Both the position numbers and the translations under genes were made by a program. Below are positions 1-22,742 of a stretch of 51,350 nucleotides of DNA, piece by piece. The notes under the pieces are model-generated. The model was not told the origin of the DNA and ran no database searches. It saw only the letters and a program-made list of their open reading frames with translations. Source of the stretch: a virus. Lineage: Duplodnaviria; Heunggongvirae; Uroviricota; Caudoviricetes. The stretch lies in the IMG/VR virus record IMGVR_UViG_2690315831_000003. The stretch is one strand, 5' to 3'. Every line of letters starts with the position of its first letter. Positions within the stretch are counted from its first letter, which is position 1.

Positions 1-1131
1 TCAAATGACCAGTTTTTTCCACTCTTTACCGCGTACATCGTTGTAAATATCGGTCATTTTTTGATTCGAATGACCCAGCAAAATTTGGGTATCAATTCCC
101 TGCTCCCTGAACAATCGCTCTGATAAAGATCTCTGCTCATGGAAAGAGGGTGGAGTGCCATTAGCGCGCCAGTTGTAATCCACAGAATCCCGGGCTTTTT
201 TAAATGCAACTGTCAACGTTGCTGGCTTAACCATCCCGCCGCGCTTAGCTGTCCCTTTAGCATGATGGTGGTGCAATAACCACGGACTAAGAACGCAATC
301 GCGACAGGATGACACTACATCATCCAGGGTGAGATTTAATTTATCGCAACGCAGAGCCAGAGGGATGGCAATCCGGGTTCCTGTTTTTTGCTGTTCGACA
401 TGAAGATAACCATCCCTGATATCCGAAAATTTCATTTTGCAAATATCTGAAAGGCGCTGGCCTGTCATCAGCGCCAGCAGCATACCACGTTGTAAAAAGT
501 AACCATCCTTTTCCGCTGCATTATAAATCATCATCCACTCATCAAAGGTCAGTCGTTGCCGTGATATCCGTACCTGTGGTTTTTTTGCCGATTCTGCAGG
601 GTTAAAGCCTGGCGAGACATCGCCCGTTTGCTGGGCCTCCCGGAAAACATCAATCAGTACTTTCCTGAAAATTTGTCCCATTCTGTTATGTCCTTTTGCC
701 TTGTAATCTTCCAGCACCGATACCACATCTTTTACGGTTATGGCATCTAATGGTCTGGTACCAAAACGTTCATCAAATACCCTGAGAGGGGATGCTTTCT
801 GTTTCAGTGTGTTGAGTTTGATCTCTCCGTTTTCATATCTTTCCTGTTGAATTTTTCGGTAACTATTCAGAAAAACAGAAACGGTTGATGAACCACCGGT
901 ATCACGAATAATTTTCTCCTGCAGAGTGAGCATTTGTTCCATTTGTTGCCTGGCAAGACGGCTGTTCGCTTCTGCTGCAATAGCTTCTGCCTGTTTCTGG
1001 TCAATACTGCCGAGCCCGTGATTTTTTCCTGTTATGGGATGCCTGTAACGCCAGTAAACTTTGTTATTTCTTTTGTCAAAATACGGAGATAATCCCGGAA
1101 CTTCAGTTTTATATTTTCGTGGGCGCGCCAT
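1..1131 (-). CDS. int: Tyrosine-type site-specific integrase
   Basis: 376-aa ORF ending exactly at window start; position next to an excisionase-like gene; typical phage integrase length and basic N-terminal arm. Confidence 0.85.
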   Translation of the reverse strand: MARPRKYKTEVPGLSPYFDKRNNKVYWRYRHPITGKNHGLGSIDQKQAEAIAAEANSRLARQQMEQMLTLQEKIIRDTGGSSTVSVFLNSYRKIQQERYENGEIKLNTLKQKASPLRVFDERFGTRPLDAITVKDVVSVLEDYKAKGHNRMGQIFRKVLIDVFREAQQTGDVSPGFNPAESAKKPQVRISRQRLTFDEWMMIYNAAEKDGYFLQRGMLLALMTGQRLSDICKMKFSDIRDGYLHVEQQKTGTRIAIPLALRCDKLNLTLDDVVSSCRDCVLSPWLLHHHHAKGTAKRGGMVKPATLTVAFKKARDSVDYNWRANGTPPSFHEQRSLSERLFREQGIDTQILLGHSNQKMTDIYNDVRGKEWKKLVI

Positions 1132-1357
1132 CTTCCAGTATCCTCTTCAAAGCAGGGTGATCTGTGGCGATCACTTCCGGCTTGTTTACCATTCCGACAA
1201 AGCGAGCTCGAGGATCCACTCGCCAGTGTCTTCCAACTTTTTTGGGGAGAGGAAATATCATTCCGGCTTTAGCGTATTTACTTAACGTGCCCGGAGTCGG
1301 GACCGGTTCACTGAATTCCTCTTTTGCCCACTCAGTGAGCAGAATAAGTCTTGCCAT
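1109..1357 (-). CDS. xis: Excisionase-like small DNA-binding protein
   Basis: 82-aa basic ORF overlapping the int start by 23 bp, as in lambda xis/int. Confidence 0.6.
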   Translation of the reverse strand: MARLILLTEWAKEEFSEPVPTPGTLSKYAKAGMIFPLPKKVGRHWRVDPRARFVGMVNKPEVIATDHPALKRILEDGAPTKI

Positions 1358-1421
1358 GAGCGTTGTTCGCTAATCATGGCCGCCGCCACTATAGCTTGCG
1401 GACGACGACCGGGGTTGAACA

Positions 1422-3893
1422 TTAAAAATCAGCCTGACTCGGGATCAGTTTTTGCCAGATGGCTGAAACGTATTTTGCCTGGTAACGCGCATCGTGCAGC
1501 GCGTTATGGCGTTCACCTTCGAATGGAATAGTCGTTCTTGCGTCGAAATCCATCACCAGTCCCAGAGCAACCATCGTTCTTACATCGCGATCATTGGTGT
1601 AACGCCACGGGCAGGGGATCCCCTGCCGTTCATATGAACGGCGTAAAATCACGTTGTCGAAAGTTGCACCGTTACCCCAGACCTGAACAAAAAATTCACC
1701 GGAGTTTTCGTCGATAAATTCCCGGAATTGCAGCAGTGCATCATCCAACGGGATTTCATCGGTCAGAATGGCGGATTGTGCTTCGCGTGACTGTTTCAGC
1801 CACCACTTAATGGTGTCCCGATCGATGACCCCGCCTGCGGTTTCCAGATCGATAGTTTTGCTGAATTCTGGCCCCATCTCTCCGGTTGCCGGATCAAAAA
1901 ACTTACCGGCTATAGCGTTTATTGGCGCATCAGGATTTTTTCCCATTGTTTCAAGGTCAATCATCAGATGGTGCCACAACCTGCTGGTGGATGTGATTTC
2001 ATGATGACCGTTCACTTTAATTAAGGGATTTGCTGTTTCGCCAGTTTTATTATCGCTGGCGTGATACCGATCGCTGACAGTGTTCTCCTTGTGCAGATGT
2101 TCAGTGCCTTCCATTTCCTCCGGATCATTTTCCTGAGCTTCAGCCTGATTCTCTTCATCGAATGTTTCCTGGTAGGTTGCGTTCCCCATCACCGCACCAC
2201 AGTCAGGACAGTTGCCGCCACCGGTCTGACCGCATGCGGTGCAAACTTTTTCCGGTTCTTGTTGCACTTCTGGTTCAGGCAGTTTCGTTTCTGGCTCGTT
2301 TTGTAACGCATTTGGGCTGTTTTGTTCCGCTTTCTGGTCGTTTTGTTCCGATTCGGGCTGGTTCTGGTTCACAGAATCGCGGGTTTCAATCCCCTTAACC
2401 CATTTCGGATCATTCGGGTCGCTAATCCCTTCAACAAACTCACCACGTGATGCACCAAGCAATTTATCGGCGTCAGGCTGGCTGATATTGGCTGCCTGCA
2501 TAATTTTGTTTACTTCGTCAGCGGTAACTTTTACCGGCTCTGGTTGTTCTGAATGTTCAGATATATCTGTATTTTGCGGTAAGCCCATGTATGTGCCGTT
2601 TTTGCGGGCAAAATATTCTTCTTTCGTGATTTCAGTAGCCCCGGCAGCCAGCGCCTTGTCCAGACCAGAAAGTTTGTTTGCGCGACCGTATTTTTCCCCG
2701 TCCTTATCGGTAAAGACGAAATAAAAAGGCCCTTCACGCTCTACAGATGGTTCAGCTTCCACCAGGATTTCATTTTTTTGAGAATTGGATTCCGCCGTCT
2801 CCACTGGATCAGTTTGTTCTGCTGACAGGAGGAGAGCATCAGCAGGGCTCTGGTCTGTTTCTTCATGTTCAAATACGCCCTTTGTAGTCAGGTATTCAGT
2901 GATGTATTTGTTCAGCGCCACGGGATCTTTATGAATGTCGATCGGACGTTCACGAACAAGGCCGAAAATAGTCTGACGGCTGTATAGAAGTGCATCAGGT
3001 TGTTTGCGCATTGATGCAGAGATACGCTTCCAGTCTTCGCGATCCTTGTCGATAACTTCATTTTTTGCCCAGCGATGGATGCTGCCGTCAATGTTTCCGG
3101 CATCAATATCACCAGGCCAGAGAGCGTAAGCCAGCTCTTCATCCAGTGTTTTCCATGTCTGCCTGTATTCGCGACGAATGGCTGTAGTGACAGGGTTGAT
3201 TTTTGCTGCTGAGTTTTCGGTGAGGTGCTGGTTAACTCTGGTGCGTGCGAGATCAACAACAGACGTATATTTTCCGGTTTCCTTGCGTTTACCTTCGCGA
3301 CGTTTTTTCCAGATGCGCATCTCTGCCTGAATTTCTGGCCATTTGGCACCAGGCTTACATTTATGCTTAACCCACCCGATGGCATGCAGTTTAATCTCCG
3401 GATACATGGCGTTAACTTCTGGCATTTTCATCAACGCTTCAACGATATGTCCGTCGAATGTTGCCATGTCTTCCTGCAACAATTCCTGTGCGCTAATCAC
3501 CATATCAACGGTGATGTTTTCACATGTGTCGAACTTAACCATGACAGCGTTCTGTACTTCAGGGGACAGCTTGTCAAAAGTGACGTTCATCGGATCTGAT
3601 TCAGTCTCAACCGGGACAAAGGAAGCAGACGCCTCATCCCAGCGGTTTTCCAGCATATATTCAGCATCCCAGGAGTCGAGGGCTGGGCGGGGTGTACCGG
3701 GTTTATCCTCACAGACAAGAAATTTATAAGCGCAGTCCTGAGCAGCCGGATAATGTTCAAGGAATTGCCAGTGAAATTTTGCGCGGGCGCGACGTTCATC
3801 ACCGGCTTCAATGGCAGTGGCCACAGCAACAGCGCCCTCGTTTTTTATTGCCTGTTCGTCAGGAATGGCGGCGCAAATAAATATTTTACTCAT
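1422..3893 (-). CDS. Large exonuclease (the type often annotated exodeoxyribonuclease VIII-like) with C-terminal DnaQ/DEDDh 3'-5' exonuclease domain
   Basis: 823 aa; C-terminal motifs IDLETMG and HNALHDARYQAK fit DEDDh Exo I and Exo III; Cys-rich CTACGQTGGGNCPDCGA segment mid-protein; RBS GAGG before ATG at 3893. Confidence 0.7.
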   Translation of the reverse strand: MSKIFICAAIPDEQAIKNEGAVAVATAIEAGDERRARAKFHWQFLEHYPAAQDCAYKFLVCEDKPGTPRPALDSWDAEYMLENRWDEASASFVPVETESDPMNVTFDKLSPEVQNAVMVKFDTCENITVDMVISAQELLQEDMATFDGHIVEALMKMPEVNAMYPEIKLHAIGWVKHKCKPGAKWPEIQAEMRIWKKRREGKRKETGKYTSVVDLARTRVNQHLTENSAAKINPVTTAIRREYRQTWKTLDEELAYALWPGDIDAGNIDGSIHRWAKNEVIDKDREDWKRISASMRKQPDALLYSRQTIFGLVRERPIDIHKDPVALNKYITEYLTTKGVFEHEETDQSPADALLLSAEQTDPVETAESNSQKNEILVEAEPSVEREGPFYFVFTDKDGEKYGRANKLSGLDKALAAGATEITKEEYFARKNGTYMGLPQNTDISEHSEQPEPVKVTADEVNKIMQAANISQPDADKLLGASRGEFVEGISDPNDPKWVKGIETRDSVNQNQPESEQNDQKAEQNSPNALQNEPETKLPEPEVQQEPEKVCTACGQTGGGNCPDCGAVMGNATYQETFDEENQAEAQENDPEEMEGTEHLHKENTVSDRYHASDNKTGETANPLIKVNGHHEITSTSRLWHHLMIDLETMGKNPDAPINAIAGKFFDPATGEMGPEFSKTIDLETAGGVIDRDTIKWWLKQSREAQSAILTDEIPLDDALLQFREFIDENSGEFFVQVWGNGATFDNVILRRSYERQGIPCPWRYTNDRDVRTMVALGLVMDFDARTTIPFEGERHNALHDARYQAKYVSAIWQKLIPSQADF

Positions 3894-11393: not shown

Positions 11394-11603
11394 AAACGGT
11401 TTGCGGGGAAAGAAGAGTTAAGTAGAATTGCTGCGGGTGCTTGAGGCTGTCTGCCTCGGGCATGCCGCCGTAAGGCAGACAGAGAAAAGCCCCAGTTAAC
11501 ATTACGCGTCTTGCAGGACGCTTAACATTAATCTGAGGCCCAATCTATGCTTCACAAACGTAGGTTAGCCTCTTACGTGCCGAAAGGCAAGGAGAAGCAG
11601 GCT

Positions 11604-11759
11604 ATGAAGCAGCAAAAGGCGATGTTAATCGCCCTGATCGTCATCTGTATTACCGTTGTTGTGACGGCACTGGTAACGAGGAAAGACCTCTGCGAGGTAC
11701 GAATCCGAACCGGCCAGACGGAGGTCGCTGTCTTCGTAGACTACGAATCTGAGAAGTAA
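11604..11759 (+). CDS. hokD: Hok/Gef-family type I toxin (HokD/RelF-like)
   Basis: 51-aa MKQQKAMLIALIVICITVVVTALVTRKDLCEVRIRTGQTEVAVFVDYESEK nearly matches recalled HokD/RelF; structured 5' leader with 10-bp hairpin and 3' fold-back hairpin GCGAGGGAgaaaTCCCTCGC. Confidence 0.85.
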   Translation: MKQQKAMLIALIVICITVVVTALVTRKDLCEVRIRTGQTEVAVFVDYESEK

Positions 11760-13263: not shown

Positions 13264-13626
13264 ATGCTCATAGATTTGGTTTTACCTTACCCGCCGACGG
13301 TGAACACTTACTGGCGACGCCGTGGCAGCACATATTTTGTATCAAAAGCCGGGGAGCGTTATCGCCGGGCAGTGGTGCTTATTGTTCGCCAGCAGCGACT
13401 GAAATTAAGCCTGTCCGGACGGCTGGCAATAAAAATTATTGCAGAGCCGCCGGATAAGCGCCGCCGTGACCTGGACAATATTCTGAAAGCACCGCTGGAT
13501 GCGCTGACGCACGCGGGGTTGTTAATGGACGATGAGCAGTTTGATGAAATCAATATTGTACGTGGCAAGCCAGTATCTGGTGGACGGCTGGAGATAAGAA
13601 TTACAGAGGTGGGTGTGCATGAATAA
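13264..13626 (+). CDS. rusA: Holliday-junction resolvase RusA
   Basis: 120 aa; motifs PDKRRRDLDNILKAPLDAL and GGRLEIRITEVG match recalled RusA. Confidence 0.85.
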   Translation: MLIDLVLPYPPTVNTYWRRRGSTYFVSKAGERYRRAVVLIVRQQRLKLSLSGRLAIKIIAEPPDKRRRDLDNILKAPLDALTHAGLLMDDEQFDEINIVRGKPVSGGRLEIRITEVGVHE

Positions 13627-14284
13627 CCAGTATTTACAGTTTGTTCGTGAGCAACTCATGATTGCCACTGCGGATCTTAGTGGGTCGACAAAAGGCCAGC
13701 TGGAAGTCTGGCAGGAAAATGCCCTGTTCGATACAGGGCGTTACAGACGCAAAAAAATTCGTTACCGCGATGAGGTAACCGGAAAAATGATCACGCGGGA
13801 TAATCCCCCGATCCCGGGTAAACAATCACTGGCGAAAGGCTCATCAATTGCCCTGGTCAGTCCGGTTGAGTTTTCGACATCATCATGGCGACGCGCCGTT
13901 CTGTCTCTTGAAGAACATCATAAAGCCTGGCTGCTGTGGTGTTACAGCGGTAGCATTTGCTGGGAGCATCAGATCGCGATAACGCAGTGGGCGTGGACTG
14001 AATTTAATGCTCAATCCGGTACCAGAAAAATTGCAGGAAAAACTCTGGTGCGCCTGAAGACGTTGATCTGGTTGGCGGCGCAGGCGGTAAAAGCTGAGCT
14101 TTTTGGTGGGGAAGGTTACGAATACCAGGAACTGGCGTTACTGGTGGGAGTAACAACCAAAAACTGGTCCAAGACATTTACTGGTCACTGGGTTGCAATG
14201 AAACACATTTTTCATCGGCTGGATAGTGAAGCTTTATTGTTGGTGGAGGGAACACGTTCAAAACAAAAGGCGGCATTTTCATAG
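13619..14284 (+). CDS. Late-gene antiterminator, Q-like
   Basis: Follows rusA and directly precedes a strong promoter plus intrinsic terminator pair (pR'/tR' architecture); Qin-like gene order. Confidence 0.6.
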   Translation: MNNQYLQFVREQLMIATADLSGSTKGQLEVWQENALFDTGRYRRKKIRYRDEVTGKMITRDNPPIPGKQSLAKGSSIALVSPVEFSTSSWRRAVLSLEEHHKAWLLWCYSGSICWEHQIAITQWAWTEFNAQSGTRKIAGKTLVRLKTLIWLAAQAVKAELFGGEGYEYQELALLVGVTTKNWSKTFTGHWVAMKHIFHRLDSEALLLVEGTRSKQKAAFS

Positions 14285-14291
14285 CAAAGTA

Positions 14292-14320
14292 TTGCAAAAG
14301 TAGATAAAAAGGCATATATT
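14292..14320 (+). promoter_or_regulatory. Late promoter pR'-like
   Basis: TTGCAA (14292-14297), 17-nt spacer, TATATT (14315-14320), immediately downstream of the Q-like gene. Confidence 0.6.
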
Positions 14321-15772: not shown

Positions 15773-16831
15773 ATGTTTAATACTGTAAAAATATCCAGTT
15801 GTGAGTTAATCAACGCTGACTGCCTGGAATTTATCCGGTCGTTACCCGAAAATTCTGTTGACCTGATAGTCACGGACCCGCCGTACTTTAAAGTGAAGCC
15901 TGAGGGCTGGGATAACCAGTGGAAGGGCGACGATGACTACCTGAAGTGGCTGGACCTGTGTCTGGCGCAGTTCTGGCGGGTGCTGAAACCTGCCGGAAGT
16001 CTTTACCTGTTCTGTGGCCATCGCCTGGCATCTGACATTGAAATCATGATGCGTGAACGCTTCAGTGTGCTGAACCATATTATCTGGGCAAAGCCGTCCG
16101 GACGCTGGAACGGGTGCAACAAGGAAAGCCTGCGGGCGTATTTCCCCGCCACAGAGCGCATTCTGTTCGCGGAACATTATCAGGGGCCGTATCGCCCGAA
16201 AGATGCCGGGTATGAGGCGAAGGGCAGGGCACTGAAACAGCATGTGATGGCCCCGCTGATTTCTTACTTTCGTGATGCGCGTGCTGCCCTGGGGATAACG
16301 GCAAAACAGATAGTGGATGCCACAGGAAAGAAAAACATGGTGTCGCACTGGTTCAGTGCCAGTCAGTGGCAGCTACCGAACGAAAGCGATTATCTGAAAT
16401 TACAGGCGCTGTTTGCCCGGGTGGCAGAAGAGAAGCATCAGCGGGGGGAACTGGAGAAGCCCCACCACCAGCTGCTGGAGACGTATACTTCACTGAACCG
16501 GCAGTATGCGGAACTGCAGAGTGAATATAAGCATCTGCGGCGGTATTTTGGCGTGACGGCGCAGGTGCCGTACACGGATGTGTGGACGCATAAACCGGTG
16601 CAGTACTATCCCGGGAAACATCCGTGCGAAAAACCGGCAGAAATGCTGCAGCAGATAATCAGCGCGAGCAGTCGTCCGGGTGACCTGGTTGCAGATTTTT
16701 TCATGGGGTCGGGTTCGACAGTCAAAGCCGCGATGGCGCTGGGGCGGCGTGCTACAGGCGTTGAGCTGGAGACTGAACGTTTTGAGCAGACGGTCAGGGA
16801 AGTTCAGGATTTAGTCAGTCAGAACGGATGA
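15773..16831 (+). CDS. Orphan DNA methyltransferase (N6-adenine or N4-cytosine, beta-class)
   Basis: DPPY motif near N-terminus (VTDPPYF) and FxGxG motif near C-terminus (FFMGSGST); no adjacent restriction endonuclease gene. Confidence 0.85.
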   Translation: MFNTVKISSCELINADCLEFIRSLPENSVDLIVTDPPYFKVKPEGWDNQWKGDDDYLKWLDLCLAQFWRVLKPAGSLYLFCGHRLASDIEIMMRERFSVLNHIIWAKPSGRWNGCNKESLRAYFPATERILFAEHYQGPYRPKDAGYEAKGRALKQHVMAPLISYFRDARAALGITAKQIVDATGKKNMVSHWFSASQWQLPNESDYLKLQALFARVAEEKHQRGELEKPHHQLLETYTSLNRQYAELQSEYKHLRRYFGVTAQVPYTDVWTHKPVQYYPGKHPCEKPAEMLQQIISASSRPGDLVADFFMGSGSTVKAAMALGRRATGVELETERFEQTVREVQDLVSQNG

Positions 16832-16871: not shown

Positions 16872-16947
16872 GGCCCTTTAGCTCAGTGGTGAGAGCGAGC
16901 GACTCATAATCGCCAGGTCGCTGGTTCAAATCCAGCAAGGGCCACCA
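16872..16947 (+). tRNA. tRNA with CAU anticodon (Ile2/ileX-like or Met)
   Basis: Cloverleaf folded by hand: acceptor GGCCCTT/AAGGGCC, D-arm GCTC-AGTGGTGA-GAGC, anticodon loop CTCATAA, T-loop TTCAAAT, 3' CCA. Confidence 0.85.
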
Positions 16948-16956
16948 TATCACATA

Positions 16957-17033
16957 CCGCCATTAGCTCATCGGGATAGAGCGCCAGCCTTCGAAGCTGG
17001 CTGCGCGGGGTTCGAGTCCTCGATGGCGGTCCA
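16957..17033 (+). tRNA. tRNA-Arg (UCG anticodon)
   Basis: Acceptor CCGCCAT/ATGGCGG, anticodon stem CCAGC/GCTGG with loop CTTCGAA, T-loop TTCGAGT, 3' CCA; unusual C1-G72. Confidence 0.75.
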
Positions 17034-17311: not shown

Positions 17312-17740
17312 ATGTATTGCCGTGCTGTACCGGTTCTTGTTTTGATATTAGCCAGTCTGACAACTGGCTGCACAAAAGATGTATCGACAAATAATTATGA
17401 TGCTTCTCTGTATCACTCAGATAAATTAATAAAGTCGCAAAATTTGAGCTCATCGGAACGTACCCCTGATGCCAGTGAAGAAATCCGGCAGTATGCCATT
17501 CAGGTCAGGAAAGCCATAGAAGAACAGTTAAAGGATGCGAGTAAGTATTCAGGAAAAGAGTGTTCACTGAGAATGTATATGGCCCCGAATGGTCTTCTGC
17601 TACAGGTTAAAAGAGAAAGCGGTGATCCCGATTTATGTCGTGAAGCGATGAATGCAGTAAAGAATGCTGATATACCATCACCACCGTCTTCAGGAGTATA
17701 TAAAGCATTTAGAAATGGCGTGCTGGATTTTAAACTCTGA
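17312..17740 (+). CDS. Lipoprotein with TolA C-terminal (domain III)-like domain
   Basis: Signal peptide plus lipobox LTTGC; C-terminal SKYSGKECSLRMYMAPNGLLLQVKRESGDPDLCREAMNAVKNADIPSPPSSGVYKAFRNGVLDFKL parallels recalled E. coli TolA III; AT-rich context. Confidence 0.7.
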   Translation: MYCRAVPVLVLILASLTTGCTKDVSTNNYDASLYHSDKLIKSQNLSSSERTPDASEEIRQYAIQVRKAIEEQLKDASKYSGKECSLRMYMAPNGLLLQVKRESGDPDLCREAMNAVKNADIPSPPSSGVYKAFRNGVLDFKL

Positions 17741-17877
17741 CAGGGGGAGAAGATTTTCTCCTGTCCTGATGATTTTGGGGCGCTGGAAAGATATTGTGCT
17801 GTGAAGTGTTAAATCCCTCACAATTCAGTAAGTTGACAGTTGCCTGTCAGACTGAGCATTTGTTAAAAAAATTTCGC

Positions 17878-18053
17878 ATGGTGAATCCCCCTGTGCGGAG
17901 GGGCGACTGGTGAACGGTATGATCTCTTTGATGATCGTAAGCGAGAATACGCGGGTTTGGTGTCACCGGGCTGAACTCACCGGGAGGCACCCGGCACCAT
18001 GCTCATGGTGATACAGAAATGCGGCTTCAGCCCCTCTCCGGAGGGGCTTTCTT
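17878..18053 (+). ncRNA. Putative sRNA, repeat unit A
   Basis: Promoter TTGCCT (17840-17845) / TAAAAA (17864-17869); terminator GCCCCTCTCCGGAGGGGC + T-run at 18030-18052; ORFs across the unit not conserved. Confidence 0.4.
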
Positions 18054-18060
18054 ATGGACA

Positions 18061-18210: not shown

Positions 18211-18372
18211 GGTGTCCTGGTTGCAGATTTCTTCATGTGGTAGGGTTCGGCAGTTAAAGCAGCGATGGCGCTGGGGCGTCGTGCAACTGGCGTTGAGCTG
18301 GATACCGGGCGTTTTGAACAGACTGCGCAGGAAATCAGGGATGTATTTAGCGGGAGCGGTTTGCAGAAGTAA
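18211..18372 (+). pseudogene. Duplicated 3' fragment of the methyltransferase gene
   Basis: About 160 bp homologous to 16679-16831 (MTase C-terminus), with an in-frame stop and no start. Confidence 0.6.
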
Positions 18373-18435
18373 TCTCCCAAAATGCCATTTTTGGAATATA
18401 CTGGTATTAAGTCTTTTTGCTAAGGTTAATTCAAA

Positions 18436-19161
18436 ATGGATGTTGCCTGCTCTGTGGTCCTGATTCGCTATCCGATAGATATTTTTCTTGAAAAAGAAAA
18501 AGTTTCACTCGATGCCGGAAGTGTTATGCTTGTTGCCAGAAATATAAGAGGGCTTTTCTGTGCTTATGCCGACAGAGTGAAAATGGCAGATATAAGTAAC
18601 AGCGTCGTCAATCAGTATCTGGAAAGGGAGTGTGAACTGACGGAGTATACACCGACAAAAATGCCTCTTTATTTGATGTCTGATATTTACAATACGGAAC
18701 TGGCGGAGGCTTTAATAACCCGGCATAGTGAATCCAGTGATACTTTGAAGGATTTCTCTGTTATAACCGCATTTTCATGTATCTCCTTATTTGCAACAGA
18801 CAGACGTCTGCCATTATTTTTGTCCGGTGCTGTAAATAATATCAGCTGTAAAGTAAGGGCTATAATTCAGACCGACATATCGGCAGGCTGGATGCTTGGT
18901 GTGATTGCATTACAATTGCATATGAGCGAAAGCTTGTTGAAGCGAAAACTTAAGGATGAAGGTTATAGCTTTAGTCGGTTGTTGCTGGAGGAGCGAATGC
19001 GTGTTGCTGTTAATCTTGTATGTTTCCAGCGAGAGTGTGGACAAGCGATAGCGGAAAAATGTGGTTACTCAAGTAAGTCCTACTTCATTTCTGTATTTCA
19101 CCAGTATTATGGTGCACCACCTGAGAGCTATGCATATTTGCAGAAAGCAGACGTTATCTGA
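18436..19161 (+). CDS. AraC/XylS-family transcriptional regulator (cargo)
   Basis: 241 aa; C-terminal dual-HTH AraC signature region; AT-rich locus. Confidence 0.7.
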   Translation: MDVACSVVLIRYPIDIFLEKEKVSLDAGSVMLVARNIRGLFCAYADRVKMADISNSVVNQYLERECELTEYTPTKMPLYLMSDIYNTELAEALITRHSESSDTLKDFSVITAFSCISLFATDRRLPLFLSGAVNNISCKVRAIIQTDISAGWMLGVIALQLHMSESLLKRKLKDEGYSFSRLLLEERMRVAVNLVCFQRECGQAIAEKCGYSSKSYFISVFHQYYGAPPESYAYLQKADVI

Positions 19162-19250
19162 TGTTTTTTCATCAGGCATATATTGATTGACTGTATTAGA
19201 TATAGTCTGAATGTGTTCAGCATAAAAAGTTATAATCATTTGGTGTTTGC

Positions 19251-19529
19251 GTGAATATTGATGAGAAAATCAGATGTAGCCAACTGTTACAGCGTATTGA
19301 AGCCGTCAATGTGGAACGAACAAAGGTCTTCAGTCGTCTGACAGTTTTATTTTGTACCCCTGATCGACGTTCAGGTCAGGAGATGGTTCTTCTGGATGTA
19401 GATGCACTTCGGAACGTCTGTGAGGAGTTCACCGCGGCTAATTCGGAGTTACTGAGTCTTGTTCAGGAGTACAACAGAATTGCAGGTAGTAACGGTTTTG
19501 ATGAAATCAAAATTATATCCCGTGGATAA
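19251..19529 (+). CDS. Hypothetical protein downstream of the AraC-like regulator
   Basis: 92-aa ORF with GTG start and weak RBS. Confidence 0.35.
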   Translation: MNIDEKIRCSQLLQRIEAVNVERTKVFSRLTVLFCTPDRRSGQEMVLLDVDALRNVCEEFTAANSELLSLVQEYNRIAGSNGFDEIKIISRG

Positions 19530-19852
19530 AACATATCCTGTATATTTATGTTGTTACATACAGGCGCTTTTAGTATCTGCCGCACGGCAGTTGTACTTCA
19601 GAATAAGATGCTTTTGTGACTGGTGGTGTTGTATCTGGGGTTAGCCAGTAGGCAGGTTCAGAGAGTCCGGTGGTAATTATGTGTATGCAGTGGTTGTTGC
19701 TGTACCGTGGGCAAGTTCTGGAACTGGCTTCGTCCATTGTAGATGATTGTTAGCTGGATATCAGTTACCTCATGGAAATGTTAAATGACTCACAATTCGG
19801 TTGATGGGCTATTGTCTGATCGATGGAAGTCTTGTAAAAACGAGCCAGCATA

Positions 19853-20012
19853 GTGAATCCCCCTGTGCGGAGGGGCGTCTGACATGGTCTCCATAGCGAT
19901 GGTCACAATACGCAGATTCAGTAGTCAGGCTGAATCTACCGGGAGGCACCCGGCACTATGCTGCTTATGGTGTATACATAGCGATCGGCCCCTCTCCGGA
20001 GGGGCTTTTTTT
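19853..20012 (+). ncRNA. Putative sRNA, repeat unit B
   Basis: Same conserved 5' and 3' blocks, divergent middle; terminator 19988-20012. Confidence 0.4.
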
Positions 20013-20111
20013 GTGCGGGAAAAGGCTGTGTTGTTAAGTGTTAAATTCCTCACAGTTCAGATGGTTGATGCTTGCCTGTCTGAGGGGGAGTTGTTAAAAA
20101 AGTTCTGCATG

Positions 20112-20282
20112 GTGAATCCCCCTGTGCGGAGGGGCGACTGGTGTGATTTGCATCTTTTCTGTTGTAGGCAATGCAAACGCGGGTTCAGGGACACCAGACT
20201 GGACTCACCGGGAGGCACCCGGCACCATGTTCATGATGATACAGATACGCAGTGTCAGCCCCTCTCCTGAGGGGCTTTTTTA
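20112..20282 (+). ncRNA. Putative sRNA, repeat unit C
   Basis: Near-identical to unit A over the first ~35 nt and the 3' hairpins; terminator 20258-20282. Confidence 0.4.
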
Positions 20283-20381
20283 TGCAGGAAAAACGCTGTG
20301 TTGTGAAATGTTAAATTCCTCACAGTTCAGATGGTTGATGCTTGCCTGTCTTACGGGGAGTTGTTAAAAAAGTTCTGCATG

Positions 20382-20544
20382 GTGAATCCCCCTGAGCGGA
20401 GGGGCATATCAGCGCAGGTGTTTCTACTCTATCCTTTCTGTGCGGGTTCAGGTGCTGATACTGAACTCACCGGGAGGCACCCGGCACCATGCAGTATACA
20501 GAGATTAGGCATACATCCAGGCTCCTCATCGCAGGAGCCTTTTT
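20382..20544 (+). ncRNA. Putative sRNA, repeat unit D
   Basis: Conserved 5' box and internal hairpin; different terminator GGCTCCTcatcgcAGGAGCC + T5. Confidence 0.35.
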
Positions 20545-20550
20545 ACATGT

Positions 20551-20777: not shown

Positions 20778-22742
20778 ATGGCATTTAAACACTACGATGT
20801 GGTCAGGGCGGCATCGCCGTCAGACCTTGCTGAACGACTGACACAAAAACTGAAGGAGGGCTGGCAGCCATTTGGCAGTCCGGTGGCCATCACGCCTTAT
20901 ACCCTGATGCAGGCCATTGCGGCGGAAGGTGATGTCACCACACCAGTGGCGGTGACCGGTAATGAGGGTAAGGCGGTGGCTGTCAGTGCCACCAGCGACC
21001 CGGAGTATTACTTTGTTGTGGTTCTGGCAGGGCAGTCAAATGGCATGTCGTATGGTGAAGGTCTTCCGCTGCCGGAGACATATGACCGTCCGGACCCGCG
21101 CATTAAGCAGCTGGCGCGCCGCAGTACGGTGACACCGGGCGGTGCAGCATGCAAATATAACGACATCATTCCGGCGGACCATTGTCTGCATGATGTGCAG
21201 GACATGAGCCGCCTTAACCATCCGAAAGCGGACCTGTCAAAGGGGCAGTACGGTACCGTGGGGCAGGGGCTGCATATCGCCAAAAAACTGCTGCCGTTTA
21301 TACCGGCGAATGCGGGTATTCTGCTGGTTCCGTGCTGTCGTGGTGGTTCAGCGTTCACCACCGGAGCTGATGGCACATACAGTGACGCTGGCGGTGCCTC
21401 GGAGAATTCAGCGCGCTGGGGTGTGGACAAGCCGCTGTATAAGGACCTTATCGGTCGAACAAAAGCAGCACTGAAGAAGAACCCGAAAAATGTGCTGTTT
21501 ACCGTGGTGTGGATGCAGGGGGAATTTGATTTTGACGGCACGCCCGGAAATCACGCAGCACAGTTTGGTGCGCTGGTTGATAAATTCCGTGCAGACCTGA
21601 CGGATATGGCAGGTCAGTGCGTTGGTGGCTCTGCTGGCGGTGTTCCCTGGATATGCGGGGACACGACGTATTTCTGGAAGCAGAAGAACGAATCCACGTA
21701 CCAGACGGTGTACGGCAGCTATAAAAACAAAACGGAAAAGAATATCCATTTCGTACCGTTCATGACGGATGAGAACGGGGTGAATGTGCCGACGAACAAA
21801 CCGGAAGAAGACCCGGACATTCCGGGTATCGGGTATTACGGTTCGAAATGGCGTGACAGCTCAGCCACCTGGACGTCACAGGACAGGGCGAGCCATTTCA
21901 GCACCTGGGCACGCCGGGGGATTATTTCCGACCGTCTGGCAACGGCGATTCTGGTGCACGCCGGGAGAACCGCTGAATTCATTACCGGAAAACAGCCTGA
22001 TATGGTGAAGCCCACCGTACCTTCCGGTGAAGGTCCGGAGAGAGAGGCGGAAGCCCCGGTCAGTAACCGAACCCTGATGAGTCTGCTGGCATCCGGCGAA
22101 GACCTGGCATCACAGGGCTGGCGCTATTATCACAAACCGGCGGGCGGAGACAGTGTTAACAAAAACATTGCTGAAGCGGTGGTCAGTGATGCGGGGGCTA
22201 CGGGAGGTAAGGCCCTGCAACTGAACAAACCGGAAAACCACATCTGGTTTCTGGAGCATGATGCAGCCGGACAGGGGGCGGAGTTACTGAAGAAGGGCGG
22301 ACGTGTGAGCGTACGGTTTAAGTTGCCGGGTTCACTGGTGCCGAATCAGTTTGCCCTGGGCATTTACTGGCAGTTGTCGTCCCTGCCGGAGGGGGTGACG
22401 CTGTCAGGAGAAGGTAACGATATGCTGATGTCTTTCTTCCTGCAGACGGATACGACGAACCTGAACGCGATGCATCACAGGAAGCCGAATGCGAAGCTGG
22501 ATACATTCGGGGTCTTTGATAACGGATGGCACACGCTGGCTTTTGAGTTTGCCGGAAACAACAGCATTCAGGTGACACCAGTACTGGATGAGAAACGGGG
22601 AGCGGCGTTCACACTGGTGAAGTCACCGGCATCGGGGGCGGCGGACAAACTGCAACTGACCGATATATCAAAATCGGCGACGTATACGCTGCTGATTGAC
22701 AGCATTGCGGTGGAAGTGAACAGCACAGACACTGCGGCATGA
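20778..22742 (+). CDS. nanS: Prophage 9-O-acetyl-sialate esterase NanS-p-like (SGNH hydrolase)
   Basis: 654 aa; GQSN motif in VVLAGQSNGMSYGEG; same location relative to the stx site as the NanS-p gene of Stx phages. Confidence 0.7.
   Translation: MAFKHYDVVRAASPSDLAERLTQKLKEGWQPFGSPVAITPYTLMQAIAAEGDVTTPVAVTGNEGKAVAVSATSDPEYYFVVVLAGQSNGMSYGEGLPLPETYDRPDPRIKQLARRSTVTPGGAACKYNDIIPADHCLHDVQDMSRLNHPKADLSKGQYGTVGQGLHIAKKLLPFIPANAGILLVPCCRGGSAFTTGADGTYSDAGGASENSARWGVDKPLYKDLIGRTKAALKKNPKNVLFTVVWMQGEFDFDGTPGNHAAQFGALVDKFRADLTDMAGQCVGGSAGGVPWICGDTTYFWKQKNESTYQTVYGSYKNKTEKNIHFVPFMTDENGVNVPTNKPEEDPDIPGIGYYGSKWRDSSATWTSQDRASHFSTWARRGIISDRLATAILVHAGRTAEFITGKQPDMVKPTVPSGEGPEREAEAPVSNRTLMSLLASGEDLASQGWRYYHKPAGGDSVNKNIAEAVVSDAGATGGKALQLNKPENHIWFLEHDAAGQGAELLKKGGRVSVRFKLPGSLVPNQFALGIYWQLSSLPEGVTLSGEGNDMLMSFFLQTDTTNLNAMHHRKPNAKLDTFGVFDNGWHTLAFEFAGNNSIQVTPVLDEKRGAAFTLVKSPASGAADKLQLTDISKSATYTLLIDSIAVEVNSTDTAA

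Follow-up and report, generated by a model that had tools for sequence, protein, structure and literature searches.

The stretch examined here, positions 18436 to 19529 of a 51,350-nt prophage window (IMG/VR virus record IMGVR_UViG_2690315831_000003; the window is the whole stretch of DNA that was analysed), contains a gene for an AraC/XylS-family regulator followed by a small open reading frame (ORF) of 92 codons, here referred to as orf92. This locus raises the question of what such a regulator does in a prophage and whether the small ORF belongs to it. The overall best explanation, which we hold to be rather probable, is that a regulator of the Psr group, a probable activator of acid resistance, is carried as cargo in the slot used elsewhere by stx and psrA, and that orf92 is a separate neighbour gene. 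The pair consists of the following features:

18436..19161, + strand: Psr-like AraC/XylS-family regulator gene, 241 aa, ATG start, intact (ORF list, Pfam, phrog_1450 at E = 1e-91)
18907..19131, + strand: C-terminal double helix-turn-helix domain, residues 158-232 (Pfam HTH_18 match)
19162..19250, + strand: AT-rich spacer of 89 nt (alignment and GC content)
19251..19529, + strand: orf92, small phage gene, 92 aa, GTG start (ORF list, phrog_2873)

Family placement of the regulator

The 241-aa ORF passes the curated Pfam cut-offs for HTH_18 (47.3 bits versus a cut-off of 33.6, E = 2.6e-12, residues 158-232) and HTH_AraC (41.4 versus 26.6 bits) and shows the hallmark of the AraC/XylS family, a pair of helix-turn-helix motifs in a C-terminal domain some 100 aa long. 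Together with the lambdoid character of the window, these matches bear out the initial annotation, in which the gene had been described as a prophage-borne AraC/XylS regulator. Sequence matches in the PDB were found to the DNA-binding domain of GadX (2e-18) and to Rns. In near-identical genomes the Prokaryotic Genome Annotation Pipeline (PGAP) names the coding sequence (CDS) merely 'helix-turn-helix domain-containing protein'. The best NCBIfam matches were YdeO (end-to-end, 1.6e-34) and then GadX; since the scores lie far under the equivalog cut-offs (119.6 versus 348 bits for YdeO NF007407, 92.5 versus 500 for GadX NF007432), the regulator is an orthologue of neither.

For the identity comparison, reference genes were taken from the Sakai and K-12 genomes. 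The regulator is 58% identical over 239 aa to PsrA (Sakai ECs_1087, full 237-codon ORF) and 63% identical to a second uncharacterised type (L008/P0002). Identities of 36.9% over 233 aa to ECs_0287, 35% to GadW, 31% to YdeO and 31% to AppY were obtained, ECs_0287 being the putative PatE (Z0321) of Sakai to judge from its position in Sp1/OI-8. In the identity matrix of full-length homologues the regulator joins all Psr-type clusters at a distance threshold of 45% and stands apart from the putative PatE and GadW; at 85% identity the Psr group is divided into eight sublineages, with the window type among the most divergent. Closer relatedness to PsrA than to other members of the clade and carriage by a lambdoid prophage, both of which characterise the Psr group, were thus found for the regulator. 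These comparisons place the 241-aa ORF in the Psr group, within the wider GadW/YdeO/AppY/PatE clade, as a divergent type that is so far uncharacterised.

The likeness to PsrA is unevenly distributed, with 71% identity for residues 131-241 and 48% for the N-terminal part. An xCSV motif at the N-terminus and near-identical recognition helices are common to the regulator and the compared relatives, and K169 of the regulator aligns with K170 of AppY, a residue whose change to glutamate (K170E) abolishes DNA binding (PMC10057817). GadW, YdeO, GadX and AppY, which are chromosomal or DLP12-borne in K-12, have the same domain organisation, and full-length alignments were obtained to YdeO and GadW at 31-35% identity. 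The proteins PsrA and PsrB of O157:H7 (Z1789/ECs1087 and Z2104) are, like the window protein, prophage-borne AraC/XylS regulators; PsrA has 237 aa, aligns end to end and lies in the same slot between Q and nanS-p. The window regulator is far more divergent from them than PsrA is from PsrB (90% identity, PMC10877973). A comparison with PsrA/PsrB and PatE had been proposed from the outset; it proved apt for PsrA (58% identity, same slot), whereas PatE is more distant. PatE (Z0321 of OI-8, taken as ECs_0287) is also prophage-encoded, falls into the same clade and shares the xCSV motif and the conserved recognition helices, but it is 37% identical and lies at the right end of a degraded prophage, outside the Q-to-lysis slot. 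Orthology with PatE was rejected, the identity to Z0321/ECs_0287 being 36.9%. PatE-like genes (about 37% identity) were also seen at the right end of many wild lambda-like phages.

According to one review, PsrA and PsrB are joined by 'six additional Psr homologs', after Tree et al. 2011 (PMC10877973), and the window type may be among them; a literature search by RefSeq accessions found no paper. Two observations on related genes were made in passing. The psrA gene of Sakai (ECs_1087, L091:28804-29391) is annotated in RefSeq as a CDS of 195 aa, and its ORF reaches an upstream start (MVVVCSV...) that gives 237 aa. As this start aligns with the N-termini of all relatives, the annotated one is probably too far downstream. 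The Stx2k-converting phage phiSTEC1575-Stx2k (H112, OQ243220.1:16748-17455) carries a Psr-type regulator 59% identical to the window protein, the sole Psr-type match among 50,697 phage records.

The late-region cargo slot

The genes around the regulator and orf92 are those of a lambdoid prophage, with Q, a methylase, tRNAs and a TolA-domain ORF upstream of the pair and nanS-p, lysis and structural genes downstream, all on the + strand. The features that delimit and fill the slot are:

13613..14284, + strand: late antiterminator Q gene (product name in PGAP 'bacteriophage antitermination protein Q'; the equivalent loci L001 and L002 have it at 100% identity)
15773..16831, + strand: N6/N4 DNA methylase gene, full-length (Pfam N6_N4_Mtase, 3.1e-43)
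16872..17033, + strand: phage tRNA pair, one with a CAT anticodon (tRNA-Met by ARAGORN, tRNA-Ile by PGAP) and one tRNA-Arg(TCG)
17312..17740, + strand: TolA C-terminal-domain protein gene, 142 aa, lipoprotein-like N-terminus (Pfam TolA, 5.7e-23; phrog_5772)
17847..18059, + strand: STnc100 copy 1, 5' of the regulator, ending in a terminator-like hairpin at 18029-18048 (Rfam, 172.4 bits)
18212..18375, + strand: 3' remnant of a second DNA-methylase allele, directly 5' of the regulator gene (PGAP pseudogene in equivalent loci; tblastn)
19819-20014, 20078-20287 and 20349-20550, + strand: three STnc100 copies in tandem, 3' of orf92 (Rfam, 119.5-165.6 bits)
20778..22742, + strand: nanS-p-type sialate O-acetylesterase gene (DUF1737, SASA and DUF6645), the downstream boundary of the slot

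In a Stx2a phage the order of genes is Q, small ORF, methylase, tRNAs, stx2AB, nanS-p and holin, and the flanks of the cassette in the window match those of Stx phages on either side of stxAB. In prophage Sp4 of Sakai the order is Q, CAAX protease, small ORF, psrA (ECs_1087), tRNAs and a nanS-p homologue. The regulator occupies the late-region cargo slot between Q/methylase/tRNAs and nanS-p that is used by stxAB and by psrA. The window and the stxAB locus have the same backbone (Q, small ORF, methylase, tRNAs, cargo, STnc100-like sequence, nanS-p, holin) and differ in the cargo, which in the window is no toxin but consists of the regulator, orf92 and the gene for a lipoprotein with a TolA domain. 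The setting also differs from that of psrA, which in Sp4 is preceded by the CAAX-protease gene and followed by tRNAs, whereas the window regulator comes after the methylase remnant and is followed by orf92.

The base composition of the pair is AT-rich, as had been noted initially, with 40.9% GC for 18436-19529 and 29% for the spacer versus 52.4% for the window. The further description of the regulator as lying among small-RNA-like repeats could be made precise, since four copies of the Rfam family STnc100 (RF02076) surround the pair, each ending in a GC hairpin followed by a T run. The STnc100 element may form the 3' end of the orf92 transcript. In related prophages a single STnc100 copy is located about 230 nt 3' of orf92, so that the copy number is variable.

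Some of the history of the slot could be read from related loci. The methylase remnant at 18212-18375 is 73-75% identical to the full methylase by tblastn. One locus (L011) has an intact methylase directly 5' of the regulator and lacks the TolA-like gene and the tRNAs; there, the 3' end of the intact methylase gene together with a 60-nt spacer is near-identical to the remnant of the window together with the 5' end of the AraC gene. The order methylase, AraC gene, orf92 is also found in a divergent lineage, here called C, with different downstream genes. To judge from the L011 junction and the gene order of lineage C, the tRNA/TolA-domain/STnc100 block of the window seems to have arrived later, by insertion or by recombination of methylase alleles; the intact version in L011 suggests the recombination.

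Conservation and host distribution

The regulator is full-length, and its start and stop codons align with those of its relatives. Across lineages the ratio of nonsynonymous to synonymous substitution rates (dN/dS) is 0.17-0.22 at saturated synonymous divergence, the DNA-binding half reaches 0.08-0.15 versus lineage C and PsrA, and full length is kept in at least eight sublineages. These values indicate that the regulator is under purifying selection. Because both the regulator and orf92 have full-length homologues at about 60% identity and dN/dS values of 0.17-0.32, neither is a chance ORF.

Of 5,426 complete Escherichia coli genomes, 80 carry the 1.18-kb stretch of regulator and orf92 with an identity of at least 99%, always on the chromosome; at least 80% of its length is covered in 79 of the 80. 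A pseudogene, which had been named at the outset as the finding that would overturn the idea of a functional regulator, was not seen at the sequence level: the gene is intact, under purifying selection and at least 99% identical in the 80 genomes. Carriers include EH41 (O113:H21), FWSEC0010 (O113:H21), RM7190 (O91), 94-3024/CFSAN002236 (O104:H21) and RM10809-3 (O22:H8), of which EH41 and 94-3024 belong to the E. coli that make Shiga toxin (STEC). O113:H21 has been described as negative for the enterocyte effacement locus (LEE) (PMC5734773), and strain 94-3024 as negative for eae and tir (PMC4393859). No study of such prophage regulators in LEE-negative STEC (O113:H21, O104:H21) was found. For EH41, expression of gadB and a second glutamate decarboxylase gene was reported to occur 'exclusively' in comparison with another O113:H21 strain having both genes (PMC5734773); this lead is circumstantial and was not used as evidence.

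Promoters, terminators and expression

The region holds more terminator-like hairpins than expected (21 versus 6.8), and its promoter-like matches are at background (12 versus 11.2 expected). Terminator-like sites bracket the pair of regulator and orf92, at 18029-18048 upstream and at 19987-20006, 20257 and 20519 downstream, where the STnc100 copies end, and no clear terminator was found between the two genes. Immediately 3' of Q, at the expected place of pR', there is a promoter-like site (14292-14320), which is a consensus match only. The motifs TATACT (18397-18402) and TATAAT (19231-19236) can be read from the sequence; neither passed the promoter scan and no promoter is claimed for either gene.

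Since terminators flank the pair, transcription of it in a lysogen would have to start from an own promoter. The regulator would then be transcribed in lysogens from this promoter, which is probably weak or activator-dependent. After induction, Q-modified RNA polymerase would be expected to continue across the pair, as happens with stx, by analogy with lambda and Stx-phage biology. Two modes of expression are thus proposed, one from an own promoter in lysogens and the other by Q-dependent read-through upon induction, and the slot shared with Shiga toxin genes means that the regulator may be switched on by prophage induction besides its own promoter. AT-rich DNA of such kind is typically silenced by H-NS.

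The small gene orf92

Homologues of orf92 fall into three lineages, A (the window), B (the common one) and C (L008, L102), with identities of 58-63% between the proteins and 68-71% between the DNA sequences; all have exactly 92 codons and a GTG start. The dN/dS values are 0.19-0.32 at dS of about 0.9-1.2. The protein matches phrog_2873 over its full length (E = 1e-46, 158.6 bits, residues 1-92 on profile positions 17-108) and, more weakly, phrog_4827 (2.8e-07), two families of phage proteins without an assigned function; no match was obtained in Pfam or NCBIfam. By codon conservation orf92 qualifies as a genuine small phage gene. Its interpretation as a non-coding element or an antisense ORF was rejected on the grounds of 92 codons without indels at 68-71% nucleotide identity, dN/dS of 0.19-0.32 and the lack of conservation of antisense ORFs. 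The upstream ATG used by gene callers for the B type (108 aa) was likewise discarded, as it is unavailable in the window. An in-frame stop at 19233-19235 blocks this codon, and the conserved CDS therefore starts at GTG.

The AlphaFold2 model of the orf92 product (predicted local distance difference test score, pLDDT, 84.8) contains helices at residues 3-35 and 50-81 and a connecting loop with an invariant FSRLTV.F..PDR motif, and the protein is accordingly predicted to be a helical hairpin. A Foldseek search with this model against PDB and BFVD gave nothing at E <=0.001. A likeness to the TraM anti-activator (2q0o) is that of a generic helical hairpin at E of about 0.9, which is not significant, and was not used as evidence. 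In a hidden Markov model search of 1.84 billion representatives just 19 relatives were found, none of them linked to a named family.

The B-lineage gene is present in 1,186 of the 5,426 complete E. coli genomes (22%), with no feature over the gene in the records listed, and orf92 overall occurs in more than 1,200 of them, about a quarter. PGAP and RefSeq also leave the gene unannotated in the loci equivalent to the window, and the missing annotation looks like a systematic gap for a conserved small gene with a GTG start. It is likewise unannotated in phage mEp460_ev081 (LR597641.1); an example of the B lineage is L020:4001-4279. In other lambdoid prophages, genes of this kind likewise lie between Q and the lysis genes; in the window and in lineage C, orf92 comes directly after a Psr-like regulator, which is the minority arrangement. 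A second conserved setting, without nanS-p, is given by lineage C and a distant relative, in which orf92 is followed by a trio of genes for a 141-165-aa protein with a faint TerB match, a DUF3927 protein and a Phage_holin_8 protein (L102:5392-6524 and L096:5489-6548).

Proposed function and alternatives

PsrA and PsrB induce gadE and yhiF, hdeA and gadE are among the targets of PsrB and PatE, and gadE P3 is bound by AppY (PMC10877973, PMC10057817). In the Psr circuit, induction of gadE and yhiF represses type III secretion, and acid resistance is enhanced; prophage AraC-like regulators are known to feed the gadE switch and, in LEE-positive enterohaemorrhagic E. coli, type III secretion. On the model of these relatives, the window regulator would probably use its conserved double helix-turn-helix domain to bind AT-rich acid-fitness-island promoters (gadE, hdeA), and this binding would probably activate glutamate-dependent acid resistance. 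That it activates gadE and acid-fitness-island promoters like PsrA/B, PatE and AppY and thereby raises the acid resistance of its STEC host appears moderately probable. The rewiring of host virulence and acid-resistance regulons suggested initially is likewise a proposal by analogy with relatives. As some hosts are LEE-negative, the LEE-repressing arm of the Psr circuit would be without a target there, which leaves acid resistance as the likely pay-off.

Several points weigh against this proposal. The promoter scan gave no sigma-70-like site directly upstream of the regulator. The N-terminal domain is merely 48% identical to that of PsrA (58% for the whole protein), so that the signal input and part of the regulon may differ, and the AlphaFold2 model of the regulator, built on an alignment of 13 sequences, is unusable at a pLDDT of 44 and allows no claim on the N-terminal fold or a ligand. 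In L001 and L002, two equivalent loci, the annotation of the 6 kb downstream contains no pch gene. The Psr group has been described by an association with effector loci and Pch regulators (PMC10877973); the Pch part of it is not seen in these 6 kb, and this, together with the occurrence in LEE-negative STEC without a target for the type III secretion arm, sets the regulator apart from PsrA, which in Sp4 has pchA at about 4 kb.

Two other roles for the regulator were considered. It could mainly control phage-borne or neighbouring genes (nanS-p, the TolA-domain lipoprotein gene, lysis or late genes) instead of host acid resistance, a view for which its embedding in the late region beside other cargo and the divergent N-terminal domain speak; all studied members of the clade (GadX, GadW, YdeO, AppY, PatE, PsrA, PsrB), however, act on host acid-fitness-island promoters (PMC10877973, PMC10057817). 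The neighbours moreover differ between carriers, L011 lacking the TolA-like gene and the tRNAs and lineage C having other downstream genes, which argues against a fixed local target and makes this role improbable. Slightly more doubtful still is that the regulator is silent hitch-hiking cargo without a regulon of consequence, kept intact merely through recent prophage spread. The identity of 99% or more among all 80 genomic copies fits recent spread, no promoter was recognised, and H-NS typically silences DNA as AT-rich as this. Purifying selection across lineages, strongest in the DNA-binding half (0.08-0.15), and the retention of full length in at least eight sublineages stand against it, as does the close relative psrA, which is expressed and has phenotypes in lysogens (PMC10877973, PMC13502914).

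The remaining alternative concerns orf92, which had initially been put forward as a co-regulated partner of the regulator. That both genes form a functional two-gene unit, co-transcribed and with the helical-hairpin protein modulating the regulator as, for example, an anti-activator or co-factor, is compatible with their common strand, the distance of 89 nt, the lack of a convincing terminator in between and the terminator-like sites that bracket the pair. The A-type orf92 was seen solely beside the A-type regulator, and the adjacency of methylase, AraC gene and orf92 is kept in lineages A (window, L011) and C (L008, L102, L103), of which the proteins are only about 60-63% identical; this leaves room for a functional link and is a further point against treating the genes as separate. 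Consistent co-occurrence was nevertheless not observed, as adjacency is confined to these two lineages. For 80 IMG/VR loci with orf92, the upstream DNA was surveyed for an AraC homologue over at most 4 kb, and over a shorter stretch where a few loci were cut; 8 loci are of the window type, one has a PsrA-type gene with tRNAs in between and 71 have no AraC homologue in the stretch covered. The usual order with a stand-alone orf92 is methylase, tRNAs, orf92, STnc100 and nanS-p. The gene also occurs without an AraC gene in L003 and, as a distant relative, between Q and holin of another lambdoid prophage (L096). Conversely, regulators of PsrA type (Sp4, L009) and P0005 type (L104) lack orf92. The 89-nt spacer is homologous to the 5' flank (about 85 nt) of stand-alone orf92 genes, and on at least 24 contigs (L004:3762-4990, L005-L007) the two genes are split by an IS3-family element that takes the place of the native orf92 5' flank and turns the second codon of orf92 from N to D. 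A two-gene unit is thus considered unlikely, though the least unlikely of the three alternatives. The adjacent ORF stands as a real gene and the idea of a co-regulated partner is weakened by the 71 loci and the own 5' region: orf92 is a neighbour, possibly co-transcribed with the regulator here, with no dedicated partnership and normally alone in the slot. A more general role of the orf92 family as phage-encoded modulators (anti-activators or adaptors) of GadW/YdeO/Psr-type AraC regulators is a long shot; if true, it would explain the lasting attachment of orf92 to a Psr-like gene in two long-diverged lineages and would give temperate phages a second handle on the acid-resistance switch of the host.

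With the regulator read as a Psr-group activator, the theme of prophage AraC-like regulators (PsrA/B, PatE, AppY) acting on the gadE switch would be extended to LEE-negative STEC (O113:H21, O104:H21). If it raises acid resistance, it is a candidate fitness or infectious-dose factor for these lineages. The presence of the regulator is in itself unsurprising. Mildly notable are that it occurs in LEE-negative STEC, that it fills the toxin slot and that the small gene beside it is widespread and unannotated.

Other features of the window

The TolA-domain ORF at 17312-17740, which PGAP labels 'tolA', has a signal-peptide or lipobox-like N-terminus (..LILASLTTGC) fused to the TolA C-terminal domain. 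It is neighbouring cargo and no part of the regulator. Hypothetically, it could act against filamentous phages or colicins that depend on TolA, either as a decoy or as an exclusion factor. Paralogues with 67% identity were found 3' of B-type orf92 in six prophage loci (L051, L052, L057, L080, L081, L083). One feature was recorded in the early prophage region:

11435-11609, + strand: sok antitoxin RNA (RF01794, 117.7 bits)

This match indicates a hok/sok module, and a Hok/Gef protein is annotated at this position in equivalent loci.

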